Positions 5,997 to 43,651 of a stretch of DNA of 61,128 nucleotides are shown one piece after another. The position numbers and the translations under genes were made by a program. Under the pieces are notes generated by a model. The model made no database searches. It was given only the letters and a program-made list of their open reading frames with translations, and was not told the DNA's origin. This DNA is from a virus (taxonomy: Duplodnaviria > Caudoviricetes). Location: positions 1 through 61,128 of IMG/VR virus record IMGVR_UViG_3300025000_000994. One strand, given 5' to 3'. Position 1 is the stretch's first letter; each line of letters starts with the position of its first letter.

Positions 5997-6046
5997 TTCT
6001 TAAATTCCTGCCCTTCCAATACTGGTACTATTTTTATTTAAGCCCC

Positions 6047-6844
6047 TCACAATTTGTATAATCTATCAATTTCTTCGTCACTTGGTATTGATCGCTGCTC
6101 AAAATTGCCTTTTTGGGGTGTTGTATTTTGTTGTGCTTGTTTTGGCCGGTCTTTTTGAAGCAGTAATGTGTCGAACTTTTCTCGGAGCTTTTTGGCGGAT
6201 AATATATTTGATTTCCAAAAACTATCCTTTTGGCTGAATTCCATAACAACATTGATTTGTTCAAGTGTCCTTTTATCAAGCCGTGTCATTTTGTCAAACT
6301 CAGCTACCCACTTTGTTAAATCATCTGGTGTTTTTGCTCCTGGGTTATTTTGAAGCATAAGAGCTTTTAATTTTTCAGCCATCGTCATGTGTGACGATGA
6401 ATATATCTTTTCTTTATTCTTACATTCTTTAGTTCTTACATTCTTGTTAGTTGTTAGGTCTTTGTTACCCCTTTGTGACCCGTTTGTTAGTTGCTTTGTT
6501 AGGTCTTTGTCTGTCGACTGGTACAACTCCCAATTTAGAACGGTTACAAGCCTTGACTCCTTTGTTGATTCGTATGTTAGAAATTCAAGTTTTTCAAATC
6601 TAACAAAGGCAGTACGTATATTTTGTATTGAGATACCCTTACCACATTCTTTCTTAATTTTTGTAAGACTTGTAATTTTCTGTCCAGGTTTACATCTGTA
6701 CTTTTTACCCTTCCATTCCCATTCCTCTTCATCATGGTTAACCATACATAAAAGAGTAATGAGAATAGTTTTCTGTTCAGGTGTTGATAACTTCCATATT
6801 GGTTTTTCAAGGAGCACTCTGTAGAGTTTTATCCAGCCATCCAT
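6047..6844 (-). CDS. Phage replication initiator (replisome organiser)
   Basis: Starts MDGWIKLYR after RBS AAGGGTGA; C-terminal FWKSNILSAKKLREKFDTL; internal iterons. Confidence 0.8.
   Translation of the reverse strand: MDGWIKLYRVLLEKPIWKLSTPEQKTILITLLCMVNHDEEEWEWKGKKYRCKPGQKITSLTKIKKECGKGISIQNIRTAFVRFEKLEFLTYESTKESRLVTVLNWELYQSTDKDLTKQLTNGSQRGNKDLTTNKNVRTKECKNKEKIYSSSHMTMAEKLKALMLQNNPGAKTPDDLTKWVAEFDKMTRLDKRTLEQINVVMEFSQKDSFWKSNILSAKKLREKFDTLLLQKDRPKQAQQNTTPQKGNFEQRSIPSDEEIDRLYKL
6443..6520. repeat. Iterons, probable origin of prophage A
   Basis: TTGTTAGGTCTTTGT twice plus several TTGTTAG/TTTGT repeats next to an AT-rich tract inside the initiator gene. Confidence 0.65.
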
Positions 6845-19264: not shown

Positions 19265-20449
19265 ATGGCACGGCCTAAAAAACAGAACGACAAGCCATTA
19301 ACACGTAATCCTAATGGAATGGGCAACATTTATAAAAGACCTGATGGCAGGTATGAATGGAAGCAGATGGTTGATGGTGAGGTGCGGTACGAATCAGATA
19401 TAAATCTGTCTGAACTAAGAAGGAAAATAAAGAAACAAACAAACATAGGCATTAATAAGGATAAAACAAAATTATTTGAATGGATAGCCTACTGGCTTGA
19501 AAACTATGTTCAGCCTTATAAAAAACCTTCCACGTACAATAACTACAAATTCGCTTACGAAAAGTACATCAAAAAATATATGAGAAATGTCCAGCTAAGG
19601 CATGTTACAAAGATGGATGTTCAAAAAATGATAACAGACCTAATTAATGATAAGTATTCACCGTCATTAATAAAGAATGTTCGCAAGGCTTTAAGTGCTG
19701 CATTTATTTCAGCAAATGAGGAGGAACAGATCGTTGACTTCAACCCAACCAGAGACACTAAACTGCCCAAAGGCAGAACCCCTACCCGAAAAACTTTGAA
19801 ATTAGAGGAGCTAATTGCAGTTATTAATAAGTTTAAGACATCAAGGTGGTTATATGCTATCTTATTTATGCTTGCTACAGGATTGAGAAGGGGCGAACTA
19901 TTAGCCGTAAGATGGTCTGATATTGACTTTAAAGAAAAGCGTATCGGCATAGAAAACAATCAAACTCAATACGGGATTGACACGCCAAAAGACAATGAAT
20001 ACCACTATGTGCCGTTAACAGATCACGCCGTGGCCTATTTGTCTGGATGGAAAAACCAGCTTCAAAAGGAATACAACCCAGCCATATATCACAAAGTTGA
20101 TACTATTTTTGTATCAAAAAGTGGACAACCCTTACGACCTTCAAGTTTTAATAACACACTGGCAAAGCGCAAATTTGATTTTAAAGTAACGCCACACATG
20201 TTCCGGCATACCTTCGTATATCTCTCAAAGGGCAAAATAAGCCTGAGTGAATTGCAGGAAGCATTAGGACACGACCAGTCAACTACTACATTGGATATAT
20301 ACGGTCTTATGCTCGCTGATACTGTTGCTGTTGCTGATAAAATTGAAATAGCATACAAAGAATTGGATGAAGCTATGAAGGAAAATAAAAAGAAAAAGCA
20401 GGAAAGTAATGTTGTAGATTTCACACAAAGAAGATTAGCAAAACAATAA
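19265..20449 (+). CDS. int: Tyrosine integrase
   Basis: N-terminal arm-binding GNIYKRPDGRY; catalytic TGLRRGE, HMFRH, LGH and DIYG. Confidence 0.95.
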   Translation: MARPKKQNDKPLTRNPNGMGNIYKRPDGRYEWKQMVDGEVRYESDINLSELRRKIKKQTNIGINKDKTKLFEWIAYWLENYVQPYKKPSTYNNYKFAYEKYIKKYMRNVQLRHVTKMDVQKMITDLINDKYSPSLIKNVRKALSAAFISANEEEQIVDFNPTRDTKLPKGRTPTRKTLKLEELIAVINKFKTSRWLYAILFMLATGLRRGELLAVRWSDIDFKEKRIGIENNQTQYGIDTPKDNEYHYVPLTDHAVAYLSGWKNQLQKEYNPAIYHKVDTIFVSKSGQPLRPSSFNNTLAKRKFDFKVTPHMFRHTFVYLSKGKISLSELQEALGHDQSTTTLDIYGLMLADTVAVADKIEIAYKELDEAMKENKKKKQESNVVDFTQRRLAKQ

Positions 20450-22846: not shown

Positions 22847-23044
22847 TCAAAACGAAGTTTTATTTGTCGGATTATTAAGCAGCCCGAATAATACGCCAAG
22901 CTGCAGCACCCCTGCAACAACATCACCAACCATACCAGTGTCTATACCATACTTTGCCCATATGCCAGTGATTTGTCCTATACTGATTATCTGTGCTACT
23001 ACTGCCCCCCAAAAAACTGGGCTTCTAAACCTATTCTGTGTCAT
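22847..23044 (-). CDS. Holin
   Basis: QNRFRSPVFW, two TM helices, LNNPT. Confidence 0.85.
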   Translation of the reverse strand: MTQNRFRSPVFWGAVVAQIISIGQITGIWAKYGIDTGMVGDVVAGVLQLGVLFGLLNNPTNKTSF

Positions 23045-23592
23045 ATTAATTTTTCTCCCTTCAAATATTTATATATTCCATTTGCCAATCTTACTGCTAT
23101 TGAATTAAACTCATCATGAATCCATTCAGCCTGTTTCATTTCATCGTGGAAACTTACTTCTAAAATTGCTGATACCGCCAATGTCTGGTTTAATGCTCCC
23201 AGATCAGTACGCTTTCTTACTCCTACATCAGCGGTAGGCGTGAGGCTAGCAAGTTCATTATACAAGTATGTCGCAAGGATTTTACCCTTATCCGACACAT
23301 ACAGTGCCGAGCAACCTTTTGCGTATCCTCCGGCATCGCTGTGCAATTCGATGTGATAGCCTTTGCCACCATTAGCCTTGATAAACTTGTTTGAGAGTGC
23401 TATACTTGCCTTTAAATTGCCACTGTCTGTCCCTGTATTCTGCTTGGGTACTAAGTACACGTTTAACCGCTTATCCACGCTCAGAATGGCGTGTAGGCTT
23501 TTGGCTATAGTGTACATGTGGTCTTGCTCTGTATCACCCAGTTTACATTTGTTGTTCCTTTGCTGTGAGTAGGCTATTACTAGATTTATCAC
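23041..23592 (-). CDS. Endolysin, N-acetylmuramoyl-L-alanine amidase (Amidase_3), no cell-wall-binding domain
   Basis: TEQDH, IELHSDA, RTDLGAL and ILEVSFHD. Confidence 0.8.
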   Translation of the reverse strand: MINLVIAYSQQRNNKCKLGDTEQDHMYTIAKSLHAILSVDKRLNVYLVPKQNTGTDSGNLKASIALSNKFIKANGGKGYHIELHSDAGGYAKGCSALYVSDKGKILATYLYNELASLTPTADVGVRKRTDLGALNQTLAVSAILEVSFHDEMKQAEWIHDEFNSIAVRLANGIYKYLKGEKLI

Positions 23593-23885
23593 TTTGCCAC
23601 CTCTTTCATTTCGCTGATTTTGTGCCATGCTGATTTCAACGATTCCTCTGTTTTTGTTACCCTGTCACACAGTTCATAGTGCCGTAATTCGCCCGTTTCC
23701 TGCTTGCGCTTCAGGTCATCGACACCGGACTTTATATATCCGATGTCACTCATTAATGTGCCATTGTTTTTACTGTTGTCAGCAACCTCTTTTTTTGTGC
23801 CACGCTGATAGCCCATGTAGCCGAACAAAATGCTGCATATTGTCCCGACTATACCAATTAAAACAACTATGTTAACATTCTCCAT
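23589..23885 (-). CDS. Lysis-associated membrane protein (XhlA/holin-like)
   Basis: N-terminal TM plus coiled coil, overlaps the endolysin start. Confidence 0.65.
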   Translation of the reverse strand: MENVNIVVLIGIVGTICSILFGYMGYQRGTKKEVADNSKNNGTLMSDIGYIKSGVDDLKRKQETGELRHYELCDRVTKTEESLKSAWHKISEMKEVAK

Positions 23886-27650: not shown

Positions 27651-29237
27651 CTATTTCGGAAGTCCTAATAAATCAGCAAGGGCATCCTTTTCATCCGGTT
27701 CAAGATTCTGCATATCAACATAATTGAAAATATCGTCAACCGTGTATCTAGGTTCATCGCCAATCTTTTCTTTCATCATGGAAACAGCACGGTCATAGAA
27801 TGGTTTTACCTTTTCAGGTATCGCCGGAGTATCCACTCCATAACTCTTTTGCGTTTTCATGGAACTCGACAACTCTGTCAATAGCTTGTTGTATAATTTG
27901 TCACCGATTAAGGCGATATTATCTTTTGAATGAGCCATCAGCCAATTATAGGCTTTGAGCGGGTCATTTGCGTATGCTCCATTGCCACCGCCAAAGTATA
28001 TATCCTTCAATTGGTAATACTGTGATACTTGTTGCTCTGTACCTAATTTTGATGGGTCTGCTGTGCTTTCTTCTTTTAATGCCGCAACCTTTACTTCTTT
28101 TTGATATTGAGCGTTAATAATTGCAAGCTGATTTGCAAGAGATTGTTTCTGTTCTGCTAACCTTTCAGCCGCCGCCTCTTTTGCTTCTCTTGCCTCTTTG
28201 CTCAATGTTCCTGCTGGAACGCCTAATGTAATAGAAGAAGCATTATCCACGTATCCTAACTCGCTTGTTCTATCCCACGCATCAGATATTTTAGTTCTCT
28301 CGACTTCAACCTTTGCCTCGGCATCCCTTACGCTGTCGCGCTGTGCGTTGTAGCGGTTCGTGTAGGCATCCTGCCACTTTTTATACTGGTTATTATCCAT
28401 CGCCATAACAGCATCAAGCACCTTCGCGTATCTTTCGCCTTCGTCTTGATACCTGTTGTATTGAGTTTCATCAATCCCCATGAGCATATCAACTTGCGAC
28501 ATCAACATGTTGCCTTCGTCTTGAAAGGCTTGGCGTGCAATCTGTTGATACTGTGGCAATAAATCAGCTACGCCTTGCTGTACTTGGTTCTCTGTAACGG
28601 TAGAGTTCAATATTCCTCTACTGTTCATGGTTTCCATGACATTTCGCGTAAGTTCCTTTGAAGCAAGTTGAAACTGTTTGTCATTGGCAGGATCATAATT
28701 AAACTGTCTCGCCAATATGTTCTTGACTAATGCTTCAATTTGAGGCGCATACTGCGAATTGTACGGTTGAGAAGCCCATTGTTGATATGCATCTAAAGCG
28801 GATTGTTCCTGCTCACTGTATGGATTCTGATACACATACGGTGAAAGCAACTGGTCAATCTGTTCCTGTGAGCCATAATACGTATTATTCTGATACCCGG
28901 CTGGTGCATTGCCTTCATAATTGGTCAATCCGGCCGTATTGATAGGCATACCGTTTATAGTCACACCGTTTGTAGCATCCCATCCAACTTGTACCCCTGC
29001 CTGTGTAGCTGCATCACGCAAGCCTATCATCCCTGTGTTTGCCTGAACTGTAGGTGTGGTTGGTGCGGCTTGTATAGCTTGCGTTGTAGGTGTAGCAGGC
29101 GCAACAGGCGCTTGCGTTATTGGCGTGGATGGCGTTGCGGTCTGCGTGTTAAATATCCCGCTTATTCTCGCTTCATAATCGCCTGAGTTCTCACCCGTTT
29201 GGCGGGGATTGGCGGAGAATATTTCATCTAAGGTCAT
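27651..29237 (-). CDS. Internal virion/ejection protein
   Basis: P/T-rich linker, stalk-like LRDAATQAGVQVGWD motif, Q/Y-rich helical region. Confidence 0.6.
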   Translation of the reverse strand: MTLDEIFSANPRQTGENSGDYEARISGIFNTQTATPSTPITQAPVAPATPTTQAIQAAPTTPTVQANTGMIGLRDAATQAGVQVGWDATNGVTINGMPINTAGLTNYEGNAPAGYQNNTYYGSQEQIDQLLSPYVYQNPYSEQEQSALDAYQQWASQPYNSQYAPQIEALVKNILARQFNYDPANDKQFQLASKELTRNVMETMNSRGILNSTVTENQVQQGVADLLPQYQQIARQAFQDEGNMLMSQVDMLMGIDETQYNRYQDEGERYAKVLDAVMAMDNNQYKKWQDAYTNRYNAQRDSVRDAEAKVEVERTKISDAWDRTSELGYVDNASSITLGVPAGTLSKEAREAKEAAAERLAEQKQSLANQLAIINAQYQKEVKVAALKEESTADPSKLGTEQQVSQYYQLKDIYFGGGNGAYANDPLKAYNWLMAHSKDNIALIGDKLYNKLLTELSSSMKTQKSYGVDTPAIPEKVKPFYDRAVSMMKEKIGDEPRYTVDDIFNYVDMQNLEPDEKDALADLLGLPK

Positions 29238-29319
29238 GTAATCAACTCCCTATTGTATAATTTTACATAAAAAAAGAACACCCCATTGGCGTTCTTTGGA
29301 TTATTTATTAAGTTGTATT

Positions 29320-29760
29320 TTATTTTAGATTTTTTACAGCTTCATTGATCATTTTCTGTACATCTGACTTTTTGATATATCCATTGTTATTTAACCATTG
29401 CTCTGTAGCAATTCTGCTGTTTCCAATATATCCCTCAGTTGTTGTTAGCCAAGTGTTGATTATGCCGTTATAGTTCATTATTTGCAGTATACCGGAATCT
29501 GTATCTTTTAAAGTCCCAAGCGCAACCCTGCTAAAATCTTCTGCTTCCTTATTGGCGTAGTTGTATAAGACTATTGTCCCACCGATATTTGCACCTTCAC
29601 CGGATTCTGCACCTATTTTCACATTTAATTCATCATCAGCATTGAATAATCTTATGACTTCGCCTTTAACATCATCATATATTTCTGCGGGTGAAGCAAA
29701 AACAGAAACACTAAATGCCAGGATAAATCCCACAACAACACCTAAAAATATTTTCTTCAT
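29320..29760 (-). CDS. Moron: signal-peptide-bearing paralogue of the adjacent tail needle/spike domain
   Basis: Signal peptide MKKIFLGVVVGFILAFSVSVFA; own promoter and terminator; clear similarity to 29807-30649. Confidence 0.75.
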   Translation of the reverse strand: MKKIFLGVVVGFILAFSVSVFASPAEIYDDVKGEVIRLFNADDELNVKIGAESGEGANIGGTIVLYNYANKEAEDFSRVALGTLKDTDSGILQIMNYNGIINTWLTTTEGYIGNSRIATEQWLNNNGYIKKSDVQKMINEAVKNLK

Positions 29761-29806
29761 AAATAATCAACTCCTTTGGAATAATATTGTACCATCTTTA
29801 ATAAAA

Positions 29807-30649
29807 TTATACAATACTTGTAATTATTCCGCCTAATACTGAAACAGTTTTCCCATCTGCCGTTGTGAAAGAACCACTTGCCCCGGAAATTATTGGTTGA
29901 AACTTACCATCTGCCCACGGCTGTGTTGCTATCGTCTGATTTGCGATATAGCCTCCACTTGACGATATGTACGATGATGATAAGTCACCCCAAAGCAATA
30001 TACTTGACACAACATCGCCACCGCCCGTACCATCATCAGCTTTCATTATTAAGCGTCCAACATTGTCATTTGTGTTCAGATTTATGATTCCCGAATGGTT
30101 TGAGCCAAGTATTCCAATCTCAACTCTTTGATAATTTATAGGATCTGCTCCACTCGGAACATCGTCATATAATATCATCGTTCCACCAGTGTTTACGCCA
30201 GCACCACTTTCAACACCGATTTTAGCGTTTAAGTTGCCACCAATATCGAATATTTTAAGCACACCGCCATATGTGTCCTTATAGGCATGAAGAAGAACCT
30301 TTGCGAGATATGTTATAAGTAATTGTCCATCAAGCACCTGTGTTCCGTTTTCGTCCAAGTACACGCTCTTTTTTCCGTTTGGGTCATAAATCTCGAACAC
30401 AAATTTAGCTTGAACCGAGTCATACCCCATCTGCAGCCTTAATACGGGTACAGTCTGTTTATCACTCATTTTTAGCACCGGCCCGTCAATCTGCGTTTCC
30501 CCGTTGGCACTCTGTATACTGCAATACTCCGTATATAGCCTCTTCACATTGTCATGGTCTAAGTTTGCCATAAGCCAATTTAATGTTCTCTTCAACATTG
30601 CTATAGTATCCTCTACCGATGGACCATCTCTTAATTCCATTATAGACAT
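29807..30649 (-). CDS. Tail needle/spike protein
   Basis: Follows the nozzle gene; beta-rich; ends SGSFTTADGKTVSVLGGIITSI, a spike-tip-like motif. Confidence 0.55.
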   Translation of the reverse strand: MSIMELRDGPSVEDTIAMLKRTLNWLMANLDHDNVKRLYTEYCSIQSANGETQIDGPVLKMSDKQTVPVLRLQMGYDSVQAKFVFEIYDPNGKKSVYLDENGTQVLDGQLLITYLAKVLLHAYKDTYGGVLKIFDIGGNLNAKIGVESGAGVNTGGTMILYDDVPSGADPINYQRVEIGILGSNHSGIINLNTNDNVGRLIMKADDGTGGGDVVSSILLWGDLSSSYISSSGGYIANQTIATQPWADGKFQPIISGASGSFTTADGKTVSVLGGIITSIV

Positions 30650-30652
30650 AAA

Positions 30653-32017
30653 TCACATCTCCAATCTCAAATCGTCACCGATATAGTAAATTGTTGCCGG
30701 GCCTGTTCCCGCAAATTTCAGCCTATACCATTCGCAACTCTCTATTTCATCCGTGTACACATCAACCCTTTGTTCCGTCGCTGAGGCTGTGAAGGTATGG
30801 ACTAACACAAAGTCGTTTCCGTCAACTGTTTTGCTCACAGATAAGGTCATGGTTGAACCTATTGGTAAGTCAAACACTATTGGAATACTCCCTAATGTCT
30901 TTGTTTTAAGGTTGTTCCGGTTTAATGCTCCTGTGGTATGATACCATGATATGGCTGTTCCATTGTCCGTCAATCCGCCTTCCATATCATATATAACCCC
31001 TGTAGGGCTTACGCCGTAACAACTCTCGCCAATGGTTACAAATTGGCTTATAGCAAGGCTGTGAACGTTCCATATTTTGAATTCTGTATCGTATTCAAGG
31101 ACTATGTTATTCTCTGTCACAGCTCCGTAAGGGATTGCCCAATAGATGTACTTGCCGTTCTTTCCAGCGCAGATTTTAGCCTTATGCGCCAAGGCTATAC
31201 CATCAATAAAACTCTTTACTGCATGGCTCATTTTGACAGGCTTGCTACCTGTATAGGCTTTAATCCATCCGTAGTCCATGAAGTATAAAACTCCACCATT
31301 TTCAATAACAGACCTGTCAGATATACACCCATCATCTGATAAATCTACAAGTTGATAATTGCCTGGATATGAGCCATAAAGTTCGTGCATGGATTGGCCT
31401 GTCCAGATTACGATGTGGTCGTTAAATTCCGTTATAGCTGCCCCATCACCTTTAGCATTGGTGATTGTTATACTTCCTGCATCATCTGCTGTTGTCCAGT
31501 CGGTTATGAGGTTTAAGGCTGAGAATTTCAATTCCTTTCCTTTTAAAGCGTATACTCTGCCTTTATGAACAGCATATAGTTTTGTTGCAGGTGCAGCGGT
31601 CAAACTTACTGCATTTGTTCCATCCCATGAATATGTATCCGTGCCGTTCACAAGAATGGTGTATAAGGTTGTTCCTGTGGCAAACTCAACTATTTTACCT
31701 GTTGCGCTTGTCAATGTATCTTTAACCGTCTGCCATGCCGAACCATCCCACCGTTTCCATACAGTTCCATCCTGTACATGAGGATATTGGTTATTCCTCT
31801 GTCCTAATGCATTAGGCGTGGTTATGGCAGTAAAGGCATCATCGGTCCCTGGGCGAACAGCAAGGGCCGGATATAACCGGCTCGATACATTTCTGGAATC
31901 CCTTGCCTCACCTTCTTTGATATTGAAAGGTGTGCCATACGTGTTAATCCCTCCGCCTAAATAGATAGGCGCAGAAGGTTGAACTTTATATCTCGGAGCT
32001 CTTAAAATTGGTTTCAT
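30653..32017 (-). CDS. Tail nozzle/tubular protein B-like protein (beta-propeller)
   Basis: GGIN..GEARDSRN, HKGRVY, LKFSAL..DW and GCISDRSV. Confidence 0.7.
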   Translation of the reverse strand: MKPILRAPRYKVQPSAPIYLGGGINTYGTPFNIKEGEARDSRNVSSRLYPALAVRPGTDDAFTAITTPNALGQRNNQYPHVQDGTVWKRWDGSAWQTVKDTLTSATGKIVEFATGTTLYTILVNGTDTYSWDGTNAVSLTAAPATKLYAVHKGRVYALKGKELKFSALNLITDWTTADDAGSITITNAKGDGAAITEFNDHIVIWTGQSMHELYGSYPGNYQLVDLSDDGCISDRSVIENGGVLYFMDYGWIKAYTGSKPVKMSHAVKSFIDGIALAHKAKICAGKNGKYIYWAIPYGAVTENNIVLEYDTEFKIWNVHSLAISQFVTIGESCYGVSPTGVIYDMEGGLTDNGTAISWYHTTGALNRNNLKTKTLGSIPIVFDLPIGSTMTLSVSKTVDGNDFVLVHTFTASATEQRVDVYTDEIESCEWYRLKFAGTGPATIYYIGDDLRLEM

Positions 32018-32018
32018 A

Positions 32019-32639
32019 TTATCTGCTCCAATCCTTTAATTTCTTTGAGCGTGGGTTGTTAAGATATTTAGCAAGAAGAATCTGTCCCATGAGTTCATTA
32101 TATTTCTGCGTGTAGTTATTCGCTGTGGTGGTGTCTGGATTGCTCCCCGATCCTGCTATTTCAGCGATTGCGCCATATACTAAAATCCTGTGCCAATCCT
32201 CTCTCAACTCCGGTGTTTCGCCCGTGTTGGATGAATTCATCAATGCAGGGCGTTTTTTGAATATTAACCTTATGTTCCATCCGGTAGTATCAGGCATGGG
32301 GTATAAGCCAATTAAGCCGTTGAAGGCATCAAAGTATCTGTATCCGCTCATGTTCTCATTTAAGTCTGCGAGAGTGTATTCCTGAAACTCTGAATTTGAA
32401 GTTATTACAGCATCTTTTGTCAAACCGACATATTCAAGAAACTCAACTTCGCAATTTGTGGGCAAAGAATAAGACCACTGATCAGCAACTGTGTTAAACT
32501 CATATATGTCTTTAATCTGTAGTTCTCTGAATATTTCTCTCTGTTCATCGTTCAGAATGCTTGTTATCTCGGCATCTGTCCATGTCGCGGCTTTCGGGTA
32601 ATACCGCTTTATTTTGGTTAATATTTCAGCGAGTGTCAT
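32019..32639 (-). CDS. Head-tail adaptor/tubular protein A-like protein
   Basis: MTLAEIL..LNDEQREI..LYPMPD..WHRILVYGAIAE. Confidence 0.7.
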   Translation of the reverse strand: MTLAEILTKIKRYYPKAATWTDAEITSILNDEQREIFRELQIKDIYEFNTVADQWSYSLPTNCEVEFLEYVGLTKDAVITSNSEFQEYTLADLNENMSGYRYFDAFNGLIGLYPMPDTTGWNIRLIFKKRPALMNSSNTGETPELREDWHRILVYGAIAEIAGSGSNPDTTTANNYTQKYNELMGQILLAKYLNNPRSKKLKDWSR

Positions 32640-32679: not shown

Positions 32680-32814
32680 TTAAAATAAGTTTATATAATC
32701 TTCGTAAACCTCAACATTTGTAAATTCAACGCATCCACCTTCACAGAAAATATCCAGTTCTTTTTGCTCATCAGATAACTCATTTAATTTTTCAATTAAT
32801 GCTTTAGCTTTCAT
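32680..32814 (-). CDS. 44-aa protein inserted in the tail module
   Basis: MKAKALIEKLNELSDEQKELDIFCEGGC, related to 45612-45818. Confidence 0.55.
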   Translation of the reverse strand: MKAKALIEKLNELSDEQKELDIFCEGGCVEFTNVEVYEDYINLF

Positions 32815-33011
32815 TTATCTCACTTTCCTTGTATACTACAAATTTGTCTCCGCTACGTTGTTTACGCATTCTCTTTCCTCTGCTGATATTTGCAGTTTGT
32901 TGGCAATGCTTTTTACCAACTCGTCAACACCGTATCCTTCAGAGACAGCCCATAATACAATTGACTGCATTTTATTTAATTCATCTTGAGAAAAAATTAT
33001 AACAAACCTCC

Positions 33012-34622
33012 TTATGCATTCGGTATTCTCAATACTCTGTATCCAGTGCCGCCAGAATCATTTGCACCGATTGACACGTCAAGTCCAGCATATTTAATTG
33101 CAGGTACACTAACCTTTCCAGAACCTGTCTGCCGCGTTAATCGCAAATCTCCTGTAGCTGTTTCAACATTAATATTCCATTTACTACTTGAGTCTCCAGC
33201 TAGTAACCCGATATGGGTATTAGAACCGCATATCATCATTGGCTCCGTTGCTAATGCTGCTAGTGCCGCTAATATTCCCGCATCTGAAGCCGCAAAAACA
33301 GTACTCTTCAATTTAAACTTGTTTTGATAGCCTAAACTTGTAGACCATGTTAATACAGCATCAGTTTCAATAACAGGATCTTTTGTTCCGTTTCCTTTGT
33401 CGATATACAGCACAGTGTTTTCCCGTGATGGATAAGTATAGCTTTCTGTACCACGGGCAATAATGGAATAGGCTAGTGTTTTGTTTGAAATGCCTACGTG
33501 CATAAAGAAGTTTCCTGCCGCGCCGCTGCTAATTAAATCATTTCTTCCTCGTAATTCTATTCCTGTACCCGTGCTTGTATTATCTAAAACATGAAAACGT
33601 GTTTGCGTAAAGAAATTATTATCCGCATCGTCTACAGTTATGCCGTTCCCATTATGAATACCACCTTGAATACTTTCAAAATAATTGTATGATGTATTAC
33701 CTTTTTTACCCGCAACAGATGTTCCGCCAGTCAAAAATAGCACAGCGCCATCTTTAATTCTTTGTTTACCTGTAATCATAGAAAATACGTTTTTTTGCGA
33801 ATCCGATGCTTCTGTAATTGCTCCCGTGGTGTCTACGCCGACATATAAACCCGCTACGCCAAATTCATTAAAATATAAAGAGTCAAATCTTGAATTATTC
33901 ACACTTTTTATTACTAGTCCATAATCTGCTAAATCATTTGCTATAAAAGATATATTGCTAATTTGGCATGAATCAATACGTGTAAGTGATGTTGCGTGTG
34001 GGCATAACTCCATCATTGTTCCATTCGCTGCACCAATCCAAGTAAATCTAGTAGCAGCAATATTTCCAGATGCATCATGTATGTCACCCATACCAAATCC
34101 TATTAAATGTATGTTTGAATTATCAATAACAACCTTCGAAGCGAGTCCATAATTAGCAGGAGGAAACACGATACGTGCTCCGTTTACAGATTTAGCATAT
34201 TGAATAATTGCGTTGATTGCCTCTGAATCGTCTGTACCATCACCTTTTACAGGAACTAATGGAGCAGGCGGAGCGAAAACATTAATATATACTTGTGCTG
34301 TAGCTGCCGTATGCGAAGTAAAACTATTTACGGTTATAGTTGAACCGCCCGTGATGGTTACATTGTTACCTAAAAATGTTATGCCTGTAGTATTGGTCAA
34401 GGCAGTTATTTTATAAGTCTTACCACTTACAAAGTTAATATCTGAAACGCCTGCCGCTATAGCCGCATCAACCGCCGCCTGTACTGCCAAAGTGTCGTCC
34501 GTTACTCCGTCGCCTACTGCGCCATAGGCAGATACCCATATCTGGCCTACTTTGTTTATAAAAAAATTGCTTATTTGTGATTGTGCCGTATAAATACTTA
34601 AGAGTTCAGCTGGAGTTGGCAT
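33012..34622 (-). CDS. Tailspike with a pectate-lyase-like beta-helix
   Basis: YGAVGDGVTDDT and KGDGTDDSEAI motifs, N/G-rich beta repeats. Confidence 0.8.
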   Translation of the reverse strand: MPTPAELLSIYTAQSQISNFFINKVGQIWVSAYGAVGDGVTDDTLAVQAAVDAAIAAGVSDINFVSGKTYKITALTNTTGITFLGNNVTITGGSTITVNSFTSHTAATAQVYINVFAPPAPLVPVKGDGTDDSEAINAIIQYAKSVNGARIVFPPANYGLASKVVIDNSNIHLIGFGMGDIHDASGNIAATRFTWIGAANGTMMELCPHATSLTRIDSCQISNISFIANDLADYGLVIKSVNNSRFDSLYFNEFGVAGLYVGVDTTGAITEASDSQKNVFSMITGKQRIKDGAVLFLTGGTSVAGKKGNTSYNYFESIQGGIHNGNGITVDDADNNFFTQTRFHVLDNTSTGTGIELRGRNDLISSGAAGNFFMHVGISNKTLAYSIIARGTESYTYPSRENTVLYIDKGNGTKDPVIETDAVLTWSTSLGYQNKFKLKSTVFAASDAGILAALAALATEPMMICGSNTHIGLLAGDSSSKWNINVETATGDLRLTRQTGSGKVSVPAIKYAGLDVSIGANDSGGTGYRVLRIPNA

Positions 34623-34699
34623 ATTGCCACCTACTTTCCATAAAAATAGGACCTACCTTATAGATAAGTCCTGTGTAATATATTCCGAGGTCGAAGTAA

Positions 34700-36742: not shown

Positions 36743-37633
36743 TTAAACTCCTGCGTTGCTTACAAATCCGAACCCGTCATGGATGATCGCACTCTTATAT
36801 CTCTCATAAGCGTTGAAGTACCACACAAGAGTATCTTTTGCATCAAACTCCGAATGAGTTTTTAAGCCCATTCTAATGAGCATGATTACGGAAGCAATGT
36901 TCTCGTCAATCAAGTGCCACGGTGCAGCAGACAAATACTTGCTGAGAATTACCTTCAAACTGGGAACGGTGTTCTTAGTGTTGGATGATTCCTGTGCTTT
37001 CAAGGTGGATTCAAGGACTGACTTAATCAGTGCACCTTTATCCTTGTGAGCTAAGATAGCCGTTGCAGAGGTGTCGAACACATCGCCATTGTGCTTTTTG
37101 ATTGCGTTGAACATGTTGTCAGCAGCAATGACGTTGTCGGGCGTAATCAGCCCGGATGTAGCAAGGTTGTCGTTTACTGCGGAAGTTCCTTTAAGCGGGT
37201 GGTCATTAGCGGCATAAGCTTTACCGTCTGCGCCTGTGTTTGTAAACACGCCATTCCACTGTGCGGCTACTGCTTTTTCTCTCGCCGTTATCATGGTGCT
37301 GTACAGGTCGTCAACCATAGGACCGTTGACTACGTTGTACTGATCGTCCTCATAGGTTTCAAGATCGATAGAAAAACCGTTTGTAACTTTTACAGGTTTA
37401 ACAGTAGTCTCATAGGCATCCTGTAATTTGCCGTATTCGATTGACCCGCCAGGTGCAGTTTCCTTTGCGGCAGGAAGGTTACCCAATGTCTCAAAGGTTT
37501 CCTCCATTTTAGTTGTATTCATTACTGTGGCGTAATCTCTCCAAGATTCCTTTTTAGGCTTTTCAAGATTCTTCTTCCACACTTCCATGTGGCCTACATA
37601 CATTTCCTTGTTCAGATCTGTTGAATTAATCAT
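36743..37633 (-). CDS. Major capsid protein (Mu gpT-like)
   Basis: YEDDQY and GADGKAYAANDHP; follows scaffold and cement genes. Confidence 0.8.
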   Translation of the reverse strand: MINSTDLNKEMYVGHMEVWKKNLEKPKKESWRDYATVMNTTKMEETFETLGNLPAAKETAPGGSIEYGKLQDAYETTVKPVKVTNGFSIDLETYEDDQYNVVNGPMVDDLYSTMITAREKAVAAQWNGVFTNTGADGKAYAANDHPLKGTSAVNDNLATSGLITPDNVIAADNMFNAIKKHNGDVFDTSATAILAHKDKGALIKSVLESTLKAQESSNTKNTVPSLKVILSKYLSAAPWHLIDENIASVIMLIRMGLKTHSEFDAKDTLVWYFNAYERYKSAIIHDGFGFVSNAGV

Positions 37634-39306: not shown

Positions 39307-39647
39307 ACTCCCGCTATCTCCTTTTCTATTTGTTCCATTTCCTCTGCCGATACGTCAAGATGCTCCATAAGATACTGCCTCATAGTGATTGCATAGGGCG
39401 TATCTTTGCCACATGCAAAGCAGTGGCAACTTCCTGGTGATGGTTGGTCATGCCAAGAGCCTAACCGTTCGCAATGACCGCATATAGGCTCGTCAAGCAG
39501 TTCGACACCTCCACCGGAAGAATACGCAAACTTCTTTTCAATATCGTTATGTTGGAAAATGTGATTGCCAAACGCCTTATTTTTATCAAGTATGAGTTTA
39601 TGTGTTGTTATATTTTGTGCGTGAGGCTGCCAGATTCTTTGTTTCAC
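39303..39647 (-). CDS. Zn-finger protein
   Basis: CGHC and CHCFAC. Confidence 0.6.
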   Translation of the reverse strand: MKQRIWQPHAQNITTHKLILDKNKAFGNHIFQHNDIEKKFAYSSGGGVELLDEPICGHCERLGSWHDQPSPGSCHCFACGKDTPYAITMRQYLMEHLDVSAEEMEQIEKEIAGV

Positions 39648-41524
39648 TTGCTCACCCCCATTGGTTGGTTACTCATTAACCCCGTTGCGCCTCCTGCACC
39701 TTCTATGTAGGGATTTGCTGCTGTGGCTTGCTGATTACCCATTGGTATATTCTGATTGACTGCACCACCGTTTGCGCCTGTCACAGCACCCATAACTCTT
39801 TCAGCTTCCGGCACAAGTTTTACAATAGGTATACCTATGATGTCCTCAACCAATCGTTGCACTTGCTGATAACTCAATAGTGATTTCGGTTGTCCTGTGA
39901 TTTCGTCCGGTAATACCATTTTGGAAAGTGAAAGGATAATATTCAATAGCGCCATTTTGTTGGATGGGACACCTTCGCCAATGCTTACCTCAACGTCGAA
40001 TATAGCCTTTTTAGTCTGTGGCTTTCCACCGTCCTCAGATTCCAATTGCATATATTGTGGTACCGGTTTATCGGGGTGCGCGGTTTTCCATTGATTCTCA
40101 TATGCTGAATCAACGGGGATCATAGCGGGAACATTTCTCAATTGCCTCGCATCTACCCATTCGGTTTCTTCTGATTCCTCTGATATGCGAACAGCTTTGG
40201 CGGCGGGCCAGAATTCCATCATCAAGCCGATCATGTACATGGTGGCTTCTGCTATGGCCTCCGAAGCATCCCCTCGCTTGTCGTCTATTCCTGCGTTACC
40301 CTGTTGTACCATGATACCGCTTTGTGTGGCTGTAATCTCCCTTGATGGTGCTGTACCCATCATTAGACTTGAGAACCGCGTAATGCGCTGTACCTCGGTT
40401 AATATGAGGTTGATAAGCTGTAACACTATCTGGTTGATTCCCTGCCCCTGCGTGGTCTTTACGTTCTTGCTGGGTTCTCGCACGTATATTAGGTGAGAAG
40501 GGTCCCCGTCTAATTGGTCTGGGTCAAGTCCACTATTAGGGTCAACGTATCTCTCTGCCTGTGCAGAATATTTGGCAGCAATGATACATTCATCCCACAA
40601 GTTATTGAGCAGGTTTTGAAGCCTTACAAGTAATTTGCCATCACCAAAACGATGAAATTTTCCTTCTTCCGGATATAGTCCGAAGAACTTATATGGATAT
40701 TGATTCTCGACAAACTCATAAAATGGCTTTGATGGGTCGCTTTCGTCCAGCATGATTCCACATAAACTTATATCAAGCCGTTGAAGGTTTCCTTCCTCAT
40801 TATTGCGTGTCCATACATGGAGCTTTGTAAAGCCATCCTTGTCATCGAATGTCTGGCTCCCGTCAAAGTCTGGGTCAGTGTTACCGAGTGATACGGCGTT
40901 GGCTATATCGTCGCCGTAGTCTTTGCGGGCGGATAAGATTGAGAATGAGCCTATTTCTTCAATGATGTATTCAGCCTTTTCAATGTCGAGCAGGTTCTTT
41001 ATCTTGCCATCCACGAACACCTTGCTTATCTGCGGTGTGCGCCAATCTGGTAAACCAAATCCATCTAAAGCGTCTGGATTCCAACCAATAGCAAAACAGC
41101 CTGTGCCAAACATAATATATCGCCTAATGCCCTGCTTAACCTTGCTCTTGATACGGATATTCCGATAAGCAAAGTCTGTCAATATCTGTCCTACATGAGC
41201 GAACTTCTGATCGGAATATCCTTCGCCCTTGACAGATGCAGATATATTCTTGTCGGACATGGAAGCTGTCTGACCTTCTACTACGGGAAGAATTAAAGGG
41301 TCAAAGCTGTTCGGGTCGTTCTCGCTCTTTTTCTCCCTCTCGCACCGGTACAACTTTTCAATTTCCTCGTCCTGTTCAAGCCGCGGCTGATATTCTGATT
41401 TGAGCTGTCTATATTTAGTCAGGTAAAAGTCTACTCTCTCCTGCTGTTCTTTGGTATTAACCTTATCCCTTGCAGAGGCAAAAGACGGTTTTTGGTCGTA
41501 TTGCTTTTCGTATATGTCTGCCAA
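39644..41524 (-). CDS. Portal protein (P22/podovirus-like)
   Basis: 626 aa after terL; GDGKLLVRLQNLLNNL and TATQSGIM. Confidence 0.8.
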   Translation of the reverse strand: MADIYEKQYDQKPSFASARDKVNTKEQQERVDFYLTKYRQLKSEYQPRLEQDEEIEKLYRCEREKKSENDPNSFDPLILPVVEGQTASMSDKNISASVKGEGYSDQKFAHVGQILTDFAYRNIRIKSKVKQGIRRYIMFGTGCFAIGWNPDALDGFGLPDWRTPQISKVFVDGKIKNLLDIEKAEYIIEEIGSFSILSARKDYGDDIANAVSLGNTDPDFDGSQTFDDKDGFTKLHVWTRNNEEGNLQRLDISLCGIMLDESDPSKPFYEFVENQYPYKFFGLYPEEGKFHRFGDGKLLVRLQNLLNNLWDECIIAAKYSAQAERYVDPNSGLDPDQLDGDPSHLIYVREPSKNVKTTQGQGINQIVLQLINLILTEVQRITRFSSLMMGTAPSREITATQSGIMVQQGNAGIDDKRGDASEAIAEATMYMIGLMMEFWPAAKAVRISEESEETEWVDARQLRNVPAMIPVDSAYENQWKTAHPDKPVPQYMQLESEDGGKPQTKKAIFDVEVSIGEGVPSNKMALLNIILSLSKMVLPDEITGQPKSLLSYQQVQRLVEDIIGIPIVKLVPEAERVMGAVTGANGGAVNQNIPMGNQQATAANPYIEGAGGATGLMSNQPMGVSK

Positions 41525-42010: not shown

Positions 42011-43651
42011 TCACTTCTCCCATGATTTTTTCATTTTCTTCATGATTTGCTTAACCTCATAAGGCTTAAACCCTTGGTCTTGAAGTTCATCGGGCGTATA
42101 ATAGCCATCTGTAGGCAATTCTTTATGCCCAAAACTAAAGGCGTACATAAGGCGGTTCAAAGCCATTGAACTCATGTCTACGAGATCGTCCTTTTGCACC
42201 TTTTTCCCAGGCTTGAAGTTGGCACATTGGTCAATTACGTCCTGTGCCCACTTGCATTTTTGGAACACTCCCGGGCTTACTTCGATTTCATCGGGTATGA
42301 ATACATTTCCTGATTCCCACACCGGAAGAACAGCGTTGACACGTTCCTCTTTGCTCTTGGTTGCTTGTACAGGTATCATGCCGGGAAGCTTTATTTTCAT
42401 CATAGTGATTACAGCGGAGCCATTGGCTTTATCCTCAATGAGTTTGCACAGTGCTTTAGGCCATTTCTTAGCCATAGAGGTAATGGCTTTCATGGTTGCA
42501 ATAATATCCATTCTCCTGTAATCAATGTCTAGAAGGAAGCAATTTGCCCCTATTCTTCCCCACGTTCCACCAGCTACAAGGTCAGAGTTTTTAGTATCCT
42601 TGAATGAACAATCCCACGATTGGAGCATTTCGTCAAAACCTTCACCTTTTTGCATCTTTAAGGTTAACTTATACCGTTGCCAATACTCGCGCTTTATAAG
42701 ATTGCCTTCCAGTGACGAGGGCTTGCCTTGCATAAGTGCGTTCCACGCTCTCAAGCCGCCACCCGTAGGGTCGTTAAGGAAGGACCTCTTATATTCTTCA
42801 AGCCACTTCTTGTCTTTACCAGCTTCTATAAGCAGCGGGTCGCCCGGCTCTCTCCCAGTTATTTCTTCGTATTCCTCCGCCTCTTGTGGAAAGTTCATAT
42901 AAAACCACTTGTCGGGTTCACTATCCAACAGATAGCCTATTAAATCATCTTCATTCCATCGGGTGTGAACAATGATATATTTGCACTTGGATGAAGCCCT
43001 CGTTTTGATAGTGTTGAACCACTCATTTATTACAAACTGCTTATACAATGGGCTGTCTGCGTCCTGTCTGTTTTTGTATGGGTCGTCGATTATGGTTAAG
43101 TCTGAAGGTGAACCGGTTATAGCTGCACCTAAACCACGACTGAGCATACCCCCACGGGTTACGGCGAGTTCAAATTCCTCCGCCGATTTCTTATCTTGGG
43201 ATAATTCAATATTGAAAATTTGTTTACCGTATTCGTTTATCTTTTCAATGTTCCTTCGCCCAAACCGGTTCGCCAGATCGTCACCGTATGATATTTCTAT
43301 AACATGGTCAGATGGATTCCGCCCTAAATAATACGATGGTAATGTTTCAGTGATGCAAGAGGATTTTCCTGTTTGTGATGGCTGCGAAAGCAAAATGCCC
43401 TCGTATGGTTCGCCATGTTTATTAATCAGTTTATTATCAAGTAATAAATCAATTTTGTTGCATATGTACTTTTGAAACTTAGCTATTTTAAACTTTTGGT
43501 TGTGGATATGTACATACTGAACATATGTGGCATAATCGGTCTTGGCAAGTTCGGGCATTATTTCAGCTTCAAGTTTAACCTTGCGTTCTTTGAGTTCCCT
43601 GAGTTTCTTTTTTATCTCAAGCTCTTTTTTGGGGTCAAGTGTTTCCTGCAT
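42011..43651 (-). CDS. terL: Terminase large subunit
   Basis: Walker A-like PSQTGKS, IIDDP, TRWNEDD, nuclease SWDCSFK, IEDKANG and DDLVD. Confidence 0.92.
   Translation of the reverse strand: MQETLDPKKELEIKKKLRELKERKVKLEAEIMPELAKTDYATYVQYVHIHNQKFKIAKFQKYICNKIDLLLDNKLINKHGEPYEGILLSQPSQTGKSSCITETLPSYYLGRNPSDHVIEISYGDDLANRFGRRNIEKINEYGKQIFNIELSQDKKSAEEFELAVTRGGMLSRGLGAAITGSPSDLTIIDDPYKNRQDADSPLYKQFVINEWFNTIKTRASSKCKYIIVHTRWNEDDLIGYLLDSEPDKWFYMNFPQEAEEYEEITGREPGDPLLIEAGKDKKWLEEYKRSFLNDPTGGGLRAWNALMQGKPSSLEGNLIKREYWQRYKLTLKMQKGEGFDEMLQSWDCSFKDTKNSDLVAGGTWGRIGANCFLLDIDYRRMDIIATMKAITSMAKKWPKALCKLIEDKANGSAVITMMKIKLPGMIPVQATKSKEERVNAVLPVWESGNVFIPDEIEVSPGVFQKCKWAQDVIDQCANFKPGKKVQKDDLVDMSSMALNRLMYAFSFGHKELPTDGYYTPDELQDQGFKPYEVKQIMKKMKKSWEK

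Follow-up and report, generated by a model that had tools for sequence, protein, structure and literature searches.

An exported paralogue of a phage tail module, encoded beside the tail gene, is a candidate receptor-interference protein

Morons are found in the late or tail operons of temperate phages, with HK97 gp15 and lambda lom and bor as examples; of these, gp15 acts at the membrane, as a membrane protein, by blocking the entry of DNA. Exported exclusion proteins include TP-J34 Ltp, lactococcal Sie2009, T5 Llp and the Cor proteins of phi80 and N15, which are lipoproteins or membrane proteins that bind the receptor or the tape measure via unrelated folds. A virus's own attachment protein can also interfere with the receptor, as in the case of envelope-expressed pIII of filamentous phages and of retroviral Env (Fv4-type). 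For phages infecting Gram-positive bacteria, the exclusion proteins known to us are few and are not predictable from sequence.

We compared these systems with a locus in a 61,128-nucleotide stretch of viral DNA (Caudoviricetes; IMG/VR record IMGVR_UViG_3300025000_000994, positions 1 to 61,128; hereafter the window), where a gene for a 146-aa protein with a signal peptide adjoins that for a 280-aa tail protein to which it is related. Like the morons, it is a small extra gene between structural genes, with its own terminator, a deviant composition and a patchy presence; however, we found no sequence relation between its product and these proteins, and the known morons are not paralogues of their own tail protein. 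It shares with Ltp, Sie2009, Llp and Cor a phage origin and a predicted location outside the cytoplasmic membrane, where those proteins stop adsorption or DNA injection, but they are unrelated to their own tail proteins, whereas the 146-aa protein lacks a lipobox and is homologous to a tail tip. The logic that we propose is that of pIII and Env/Fv4, in which the infected cell's copy of a viral entry protein fills the entry site. These belong to other virus classes and folds, and employ the full attachment protein instead of a dedicated truncated paralogue with its own gene and signal peptide. The C-terminal extensions of 'evolved' siphophage Tal proteins, described as carrying binding modules (PMC7533335), occupy the same position in Tal as the module shared by our two proteins (domain X), although domain X matches no described carbohydrate-binding module. 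Among cell-surface proteins of monoderm hosts, Clostridioides difficile CwpV is described as giving phage resistance (PMC4737114); it resembles the role proposed here but is host-encoded, phase-variable and unrelated in sequence. Searches of the openly available full-text literature gave no description of an exported tail-protein paralogue acting in exclusion.

The locus lies among structural genes, all on the minus strand. An SU10-type head-to-tail adaptor (32019..32639; PF24175, E=1.5e-23) is followed by a 454-aa protein in the nozzle position (30653..32017), with a weak PHROG match and homologues that are 52–53% identical and retain the gene order. Next come the 280-aa tail protein (29807..30649), the 146-aa gene and a 528-aa presumed internal or ejection protein (27651..29237), whose gene comes straight after the tail-tip gene where relatives have no insert. 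Adaptor, nozzle and needle are described as components of SU10-type podovirus tails (PMC9509320). The 280-aa protein occupies the needle position after the nozzle gene, and the name 'needle' is an unproven label given by gene position alone. It had no match in Pfam, PHROGs or PDB sequences; PDB sequence searches with its family and with the nozzle protein returned chance-level matches only, and the match of the portal to the SU10 portal family was under the cut-off (E=2.7e-4). Using tblastn against 50,697 phage records, the 280-aa protein matched Clostridium phage c-st only, in a hypothetical tail-region protein (33% identity over 38% of the query), and neither the 146-aa protein nor P0021 had a match in these records. 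Since the lysis cassette of the window comprises a holin-like ORF and an Amidase_3 endolysin, with no spanin seen, the host is probably monoderm.

The 146-aa gene, delimited by ORF, BLASTP and GC analysis, spans 29320..29760 on the minus strand, stop codon included. It had been predicted to encode a Sec-type signal peptide, and the sequence agrees: the N-terminus reads MKK, a 19-residue apolar core and V-F-A ahead of S-P, a classical Sec/SPase-I layout that assigns residues 1–22 (29695..29760) to the signal peptide, with predicted SPase I cleavage before S23. AlphaFold2 (AF2) placed a helix at residues 2–16 in this region. Reading 17 members of the small exported family by eye, we found the layout kept in all of them, with Ala (16/17) or Gly (1/17) at −1 and V (13), I (2), A (1) or T (1) at −3, and no lipobox Cys in any signal peptide. 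All 17 thus combine the four Sec/SPase-I features, namely a positive n-region, an apolar h-region of 15–22 residues, small residues at −3/−1 and the absence of a lipobox Cys. The sequence pattern argues that the 146-aa protein is Sec-exported, and from it we infer cleavage by SPase I. Residues 24–118 (29407..29691) form domain X, an antiparallel beta-hairpin meander recognized by BLASTP, profile search, AF2 and hmmalign, which is one hairpin pair (~23 aa) shorter here than in most relatives. The C-terminus (residues 119–146; 29323..29406) consists of an ATEQW-type neck and helices, identified by alignment, AF2 and the trimer model; these are peculiar to the small exported family and lie within the predicted trimer interface. 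The protein contains no recognizable wall or membrane anchor.

The mature part of the 146-aa protein is paralogous to residues about 115–250 of the 280-aa protein. BLASTP aligned the two at 41% identity over 69 aa (E=1e-13), and a search of the phage's own genome recovered the pair at E=1.2e-12. Three aligned segments had been proposed in the original prediction; the first two fall within the BLASTP alignment, while the third, GYIGNSRIATEQW versus GYIANQTIATQPW, occupies the same profile columns in hmmalign. The family alignment divides the 280-aa protein into a conserved N-terminal region (residues 1–114; 30308-30649), domain X (residues ~115–250; 29900-30307, defined by BLASTP and hmmalign) and a conserved C-terminal end (residues 251–280, within 29807..30649) of the form ...SGSFTTADGKTV...ITSIV. 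Both outer parts are missing from the 146-aa protein, which lacks the conserved N-terminal ~110 aa and the C-terminal end of the 280-aa family, as had been anticipated. On these alignments, domain X sits in the middle of the 280-aa protein as a swappable module and precedes a separate conserved tip.

A profile search identified 80 proteins with domain X at E≤1e-3. Most occurrences of this beta-hairpin meander are at the C-terminal end of Tal proteins from siphoviruses: among 10 long carriers scanned, 7 contained Pfam Prophage_tail (Tal, PF06605) and 1 a tail-fibre chaperone domain, and the carriers at loci L016 and L020 match tail or Tal PHROGs within a TMP–Dit–Tal gene order. In siphovirus tail-tip proteins it lies C-terminal to Prophage_tail; the carrier in the window is instead a podovirus protein. 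Recurring among the 80 matches is a form of 136–186 aa that shares its signal peptide and C-terminal helix with the 146-aa protein. This small exported form makes up a recurrent family that carries no annotation; its 17 sequences are conserved down to about 30% identity, and it is present in both sipho- and podovirus contexts. The 146-aa protein matched no family in PADLOC, NCBIfam, Pfam or PHROGs. A domain X tree of 86 rows and 123 columns was poorly resolved, with 45 of 83 branches open, and the small forms may have had one origin or several. No further small-family loci were found in the viral contigs scanned with A1, P0017, A7 and A9 or in the genome contigs scanned with A1 and A4, and a metagenome scan returned only L017 and a duplicate of L016.

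We used AF2 to predict the structure of the 146-aa protein. An alignment of 5 sequences gave a pLDDT of 35, and a 40-row alignment, used instead, gave 86. The homotrimer reached an ipSAE of 0.88 versus 0.24 for the best control, with three runs agreeing in at least 84% of contacts and a partner pLDDT of at least 82. In calibration, the ipSAE mark was reached by 20 of 30 proteins whose solved structure pairs one chain with itself and by 1 of 23 whose solved structure is a single chain, counts that hold only roughly for a trimer as two copies and own alignments were used. The exported protein is therefore predicted to be a homotrimer forming a short fibre. Attempts at fold assignment (Foldseek against PDB and BFVD, and a wide VIA-align search) were set aside, having yielded only generic beta-meander matches, including the OspA single-layer sheet (E=4e-3), TCP10, MORN and porin strands, together with the phiKZ and phi92 central spikes (Z 5.3–6.6). 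Because all matches fall short of Z 8, where the noise of the tool ends, we claim no fold family. ESM Atlas features point to trimeric fibre families, with all scores ≤0.83 and to be taken as leads only.

Genomic context was read at 4 distinct loci, representing 4 of the 17 known small-family sequences: the window, L016 (identical to L018), L017 and L020. At all four, the small gene adjoins a domain-X tail gene. In the 3 records that carry the small gene, domain X was matched exactly twice, once in the tail gene and once in the small gene itself. Domain X was absent altogether from 8 of 8 related records searched (3 of them 100% complete), whose tail genes lack it and which have no small gene. 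The domain-X module and the small gene may move as a cassette. In the window, L016 and L017, the small gene is in sense orientation within or after the late operon, and in L016 it lies just ahead of the genes for holin and endolysin. The copy in L020, a record classed as a provirus, is convergent (antisense) to the tail operon, with which it shares one 13-bp-stem terminator; it must therefore be transcribed separately there, the one locus at which orientation demands this. A second exported protein with a weak DUF4352 match is encoded right after the small gene of L016.

It had also been proposed that the specificity of the exported copy co-evolves with the tail gene. Across the whole shared module, the window pair is 35% identical over 100 columns, compared with a background of 36 ± 3% (rank 44 of 69), which is no closer than unrelated pairs; the comparison therefore does not support a mimic matched in specificity in this phage. 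Ranks were 55 of 69 for the close relative pair P0003/P0007 and 28 of 70 for the L020 pair. At L016 and L017, the tail gene most like the small gene was its own neighbour, with 50% and 47% identity over a background of about 0.35 ± 0.04, each pair ranking 1 of 70.

The 146-aa gene has an accessory distribution. Of 7 distinct related contigs from podoviruses, none has the exported gene in the slot behind its tail-tip gene (the records L012 and L013 share one slot sequence and count as one of the 7). The slot is just 10–19 bp in 4 of these contigs, holds an unrelated 65–75-aa ORF in 2, and in the last (L005) contains an antisense gene for a 103-aa signal-peptide protein. An eighth contig, L008, carries an antisense 200-aa ORF for an exported protein after its tail-tip gene. 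The GC content of the 146-aa gene is 34.9%, versus 0.414–0.440 in the flanking genes and 0.410 in the whole window. Sequence scanning and folding located an intrinsic terminator after the gene (29273..29297, minus strand) with a 10-bp-stem hairpin and a T run (−12.5 kcal/mol, z=−3.0; 2 of 200 shuffles fold as well), in line with the terminator originally predicted. Low GC, the terminator, absence from the slot in 7 contigs and an antisense relative in another prophage together mark a moron-like gene, as first suggested. The best explanation is that it was inserted behind the tail-tip gene, ahead of the structural gene that follows, in a short-tailed temperate phage with an SU10-type adaptor. 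We are highly confident in the anatomy as a whole, that of an exported tail-module paralogue that is a moron, and an ordinary virion component is unlikely.

The promoter elements originally described are present on the minus strand at 29786..29814 (TTGTAT at 29814-29809, a 17-nt spacer, TACAAT at 29791-29786 and TG at −15/−14, 29794-29793), overlapping the stop codon of the 280-aa gene. The extended −10, TGGTACAAT, is paired with a −35 that matches at only 3 of 6 positions, which is why a consensus scan did not list the site. As TGNTACAAT occurs twice in the window against 3.6 occurrences expected, the promoter is plausible from its sequence but no better than chance. The site also belongs to a duplicated intergenic block that brackets the 146-aa gene, with an upstream copy (TACAATA ... 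GGAGTTGATTA, including a Shine–Dalgarno sequence) at 29764..29806 and a downstream copy at 29239..29272, directly before the 528-aa gene, both on the minus strand. Being a diverged duplicate of a block before a structural gene, it would not have to be specific to lysogens. An L005-like phage from the same metagenome has 33 bases identical to those at 29235-29267. Contigs over the region included no variant without the 146-aa gene, and the only graph branch was at this 33-bp junction; the stretch was present in 4 DNA runs, all from one groundwater-metagenome study.

The sequence evidence is best read as superinfection exclusion by receptor interference, a reading that we put forward tentatively and rate a little short of an even chance. 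The 146-aa product would be exported by Sec and its signal peptide cleaved, after which the chains would assemble outside the membrane as a short trimeric fibre built of the same beta-hairpin module as the phage's axial tail-tip protein. This trimer would occupy an envelope or membrane-proximal site needed by domain-X tail tips, so that phages with such tips would fail to complete adsorption or to trigger DNA ejection. The model supposes that domain X binds a host envelope component, and that the 146-aa gene would be expressed in the lysogen and would exclude phages. That domain X is the receptor-engaging part, as originally assumed, is unproven; it may be a structural shaft and not a binding module, given that the 280-aa copy precedes a separate conserved C-terminal end. 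A freely secreted protein without a recognizable anchor might also diffuse away from a monoderm cell. For the other mode of action first suggested, jamming of the tail, co-assembly with the tail protein was rejected by argument, as exported and cytoplasmic proteins would not meet before folding. Extended to temperate phages of monoderm hosts, long- and short-tailed alike, the model becomes one of a mobile cassette of domain-X tip and secreted trimeric copy, acting by receptor interference at the site of tip docking or ejection, with occasional gene conversion keeping the match in L016 and L017. We regard this wider version as possible yet more doubtful.

The timing of expression bears on an unlikely alternative, in which the protein is made late, on a transcript with the structural genes, and covers the receptor or entry site on the dying cell and on what is left of it, sparing released progeny. 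The sense orientation in or after the late operon at 3 of 4 loci makes late-only expression possible; the L016 gene directly before holin and endolysin and the resemblance of the promoter-like block to that before a structural gene fit the same idea, and T5 Llp reportedly has a second role resembling late receptor coating. Against this, the L020 provirus copy is antisense to the late operon, and a terminator right after the gene and its low GC suit a separate unit. Late coating and exclusion in the lysogen could in any case coexist. We give about the same low weight to a lysogenic-conversion surface protein with another benefit to the host, such as wall binding, adhesion or aggregation, its likeness to the tail reflecting re-use of a trimeric wall-binding fibre. 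Export and a predicted fibre-like trimer agree with such a role, as do the unrelated antisense exported proteins in the slot of L005 and L008 and the second exported protein next in line in L016, but it leaves unexplained both the exclusive adjacency to domain-X tail genes, seen at all 4 loci read and with no small gene in the 8 records without the domain, and the two copies that most resemble their own tail gene.

The same adjacency, the possible travel as a cassette and the cis similarity at 2 loci could also be expected of a virion or assembly component, for instance an accessory protein of ejection or of the tail that inserts into the membrane, or a chaperone that helps domain X of the tail protein to fold. 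Tail-fibre assembly genes travel with fibre tips, and small ejection or accessory genes follow the needle in P22-like gene orders, a position like that of the 146-aa gene. We nevertheless consider this still less likely: a cleavable Sec signal would take the protein from the cytoplasm, where tails are assembled, the L020 copy is antisense, podoviruses of the same group manage without the gene, and no structural family in PHROGs or Pfam was matched. Least probable is a functionless remnant of partial duplication or recombination of tail-gene DNA. The duplicated junction blocks flanking the gene, and a slot that is a recombination hot spot common to a co-occurring phage, could have such an origin, but the gene retains an open reading frame, its family has gained a signal peptide and a C-terminal helix and kept both across 17 sequences down to about 30% identity, and the family occurs in sipho- and podovirus contexts alike.

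Receptor interference, the reading that we prefer, would offer a rule readable from genomes, that of a signal-peptide paralogue of a tail-tip module adjoining the tail gene. Should it hold, genome annotation could name exclusion genes from their sequence, domain X would stand out as the part that engages the envelope in many Tal and needle proteins, and the soluble trimers could serve as probes for the entry receptor. If true, closing the door with one's own entry protein would have evolved in tailed phages as it has in retroviruses and filamentous phages, and the exported paralogue would give bacterial viruses their equivalent of interference by retroviral Env.

The 61,128-bp record is complete (IMG/VR; CheckV completeness 100%) and, judged from its genes, the phage is temperate, because it carries a tyrosine integrase (19265-20449, +), two antirepressor-type genes and an Amidase_3 endolysin (23041-23628). 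Its structural module lies on the minus strand, in the order large terminase (42011-43651), portal (39644-41524), capsid (36743-37633), pectate-lyase-type tailspike (33012-34622), SU10-type adaptor (32019-32639; PF24175, E=1.5e-23), nozzle-position protein (30653-32017), a 280-aa protein (29807-30649), a 146-aa protein (29320-29760), a 528-aa protein and a 1207-aa protein. Coming after the adaptor and nozzle-position genes, the gene for the 280-aa protein occupies the needle position; the protein matched no family or solved structure in Pfam, PHROGs or PDB sequences, and 'needle' is a positional label only. Its sole cultured-phage match was CST127 of Clostridium phage c-st (locus L019), a 544-aa hypothetical protein with 33% identity over residues 86-191, whose gene sits downstream of tail genes resembling SPbeta YomG/YomH. 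The interval separating the tailspike gene from the adaptor gene contains two 44-aa ORFs (32680-32970, -), one of which has a close homolog at the equivalent place in the compared locus L010 (365-529).

The original prediction described the 146-aa protein as an exported, independently expressed copy of part of the 280-aa tail-tip protein. Paralogy was confirmed by BLASTP (41% identity over 69 aa, E=1e-13) and by a search of the phage's own genome (E=1.2e-12). All of the aligned segments quoted there, including the third, fall within the homology, with a profile alignment spanning the whole shared module at 35% identity across 100 columns. The Sec signal is of the textbook type (MKK, a 19-residue apolar core and V-F-A before S-P, with no lipobox), and the terminator proved to be a 10-bp hairpin with a T run 3' of the stop codon (-12.5 kcal/mol, z=-3.0). 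The promoter-like site is present in the sequence as described, but its -35 element matches at only 3 of 6 positions and the site is absent from the consensus-scan list; its extended -10 word occurs twice in the window against 3.6 expected. Across the 23-36 kb stretch, just one further strong terminator-like hairpin occurs on the minus strand (34648-34672, -; 11-bp stem); it lies between a 290-aa gene and the tailspike gene, so that the structural module seems to be divided into units.

In the 280-aa family, the N-terminal ~110 aa are conserved and the remainder is variable. Using a profile built from the 146-aa protein and four close homologs, we scored the shared module, here termed domain X (residues 24-118 of the 146-aa protein; window 29407-29691), against 1.84 billion representative proteins, obtaining 80 matches at E<=1e-3 and 28 at E<=1e-10. 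Most of these carry it near the C-terminus of a 300-1100-aa protein. A Pfam scan of 10 long carriers identified Prophage_tail (siphovirus Tal) in 7, a tail-fibre chaperone domain in 1 and nothing in 2; domain X is thus a mobile module at the distal end of axial tail-tip proteins, in long-tailed as well as short-tailed phages. The domain itself matched no family in Pfam, PHROGs, NCBIfam or PADLOC. In a third architecture (P0015, P0016 and P0059; 372-374 aa, from contigs of up to 481 kb), it is joined to an unrelated N-terminal domain of ~230 aa that matches nothing in Pfam or PHROGs. Many domain-X tail proteins (for example P0041, P0047, P0054, P0073 and the Tal of locus L020) end, after the domain, in a short His-rich motif of the type H-x-x-x-Y-H, while others, including the window's 280-aa protein, have the C-terminus ...SGSFTTADGKTV...ITSIV after the domain; the exported forms have neither end.

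AlphaFold2 produced a confident model of the 146-aa protein (pLDDT 86.4, 40-row alignment), in which a signal helix is followed by an antiparallel hairpin meander of nine strands (residues 25-117), with two helices at the C-terminus. One hairpin pair of ~23 residues, found in the tail proteins and the remaining small forms, is missing from this protein and from its closest relatives (P0002-P0005 and P0017). Predicted as three copies, the mature protein passed controls (ipSAE 0.88 versus 0.24 for the best control), with contacts along its whole length, at least 84% contact agreement between runs and a partner pLDDT of at least 82. The calibration covered 30 proteins whose structures were solved as pairs of one chain, 20 of which reached the mark, and 23 solved as single chains, of which 1 did; for three copies and our own alignment these counts are only a rough guide. 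This modelling suggests that the exported protein is most likely a short trimeric fibre.

Among the profile matches, a form of 136-186 aa recurs that shares the signal peptide and has a ...DVQKMI.EA...-type helix at its C-terminus; the signal-peptide layout was kept in all 17 small-form sequences inspected. Genomic context was available for four distinct loci, and in all four the small gene adjoins a domain-X tail gene. Besides the window, these are L016 (identical to L018), where the exported paralog directly follows a 590-aa Tal-like protein ending in domain X and precedes another exported protein, holins and endolysin; L017, where it follows a truncated tail ORF ending in domain X; and L020, classed as a provirus, where TMP and Dit precede a 591-aa Tal that has domain X at its end. 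The second exported protein of L016 (3448-4191, +) has 247 aa, a signal peptide and a weak DUF4352 match (E=5.8e-4). In L020, the small gene and Tal are on opposite strands, converge on each other and have a terminator (13-bp stem) in common, with a fibre gene next; the small gene is therefore outside the late transcript there. Searching whole records with the domain profile returned the tail gene and the small gene, with no further match, in 3 of 3 small-gene records, and no match at all in 8 related records (3 of them 100% complete) whose tail-tip protein lacks domain X. From these sequence comparisons, the small exported form is judged to travel with the tail module.

The GC content of the 146-aa gene is 34.9%, versus 41-44% in flanking genes, and a duplicated intergenic block (an exact 11-mer plus a 77%-identical 22-mer, copies 525-534 bp apart) lies on both sides of it. 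The downstream copy falls within a 33-bp stretch (29235-29267) that terminates with the start ATG of the 528-aa gene and is identical in a second, more abundant, L005-like phage from the same metagenome. Both flanks differ between the two phages and the assembly graph branches; given the identity and the branch, the site behaves as a recombination joint and looks like a conserved module junction. We surveyed the slot between the tail-tip gene and the next structural gene in 11 loci from the virus collection related through the tail-tip protein. It was complete in 7 distinct contigs (L012 and L013, identical in slot sequence, counted once): 4 had only 10-19 bp between the genes, 2 an unrelated 65-75-aa soluble ORF, and 1 (L005, a related 100%-complete podovirus) an antisense gene whose unrelated 103-aa product has a clear signal peptide (5615-5926, -). 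In L008, an eighth contig, the tail-tip gene is followed by an antisense ORF of 200 aa (5905-6507, -). The 146-aa gene was absent from the slot in all eight. Judged by these contents, the slot is a hot spot of small accessory genes, several of which encode exported proteins.

We then ranked each exported copy's identity to its own tail gene, over domain columns alone, against tail proteins with enough shared columns (69-70 per comparison). L016 (50%) and L017 (47% over 78 columns) each ranked 1 of 70, and L020 ranked 28 of 70. The window pair, at 35%, equalled the background (0.36 +/- 0.03) and ranked 44 of 69, while P0003/P0007, a close relative pair, ranked 55 of 69. These ranks, together with the missing hairpin pair, leave the predicted co-evolution of specificity with the tail gene unsupported for this phage. 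A quick tree, otherwise poorly resolved, grouped the L017 tail fragment within a small-form clade (SH-aLRT 95); exchange between tail tip and mimic seems to have occurred elsewhere.

The anatomy is solid: a Sec-exported, probably trimeric tail-tip-module paralog, encoded by an accessory gene that neighbours a tail gene with this module at each of the four loci. As to function, a structural or chaperone role in the virion or its assembly is improbable, as the predicted cleavable signal peptide, the antisense placement in the L020 provirus and the related phages that do without the gene all count against it. It is unlikely that the protein is a late-acting variant preventing readsorption, there is a similarly small chance that it serves an unrelated surface conversion, and we think it very doubtful that the gene is junk. 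Exclusion by receptor interference is the best functional reading, one we hold tentatively, at slightly under even confidence.

HK97 gp15, TP-J34 Ltp, Sie2009, T5 Llp and Cor exemplify moron-encoded exclusion proteins, and the 146-aa protein would work as one of this kind; it belongs to none of their families, having no sequence match in Pfam, PHROGs, PADLOC or NCBIfam. Filamentous-phage pIII and retroviral Env cause interference through the virus's own attachment protein, which is the closest logic to the proposed mechanism. Searches of mainly open-access full texts turned up no description, for tailed phages, of an exported paralog dedicated to copying a tail protein. Binding by domain X is putative, and the separate conserved end after the module in the 280-aa protein could be the true tip. 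On the receptor-interference reading, the envelope site that domain-X tail tips use would be taken up by the exported trimer, which would thereby shield the lysogen from phages with such tips, and possibly progeny at lysis too.
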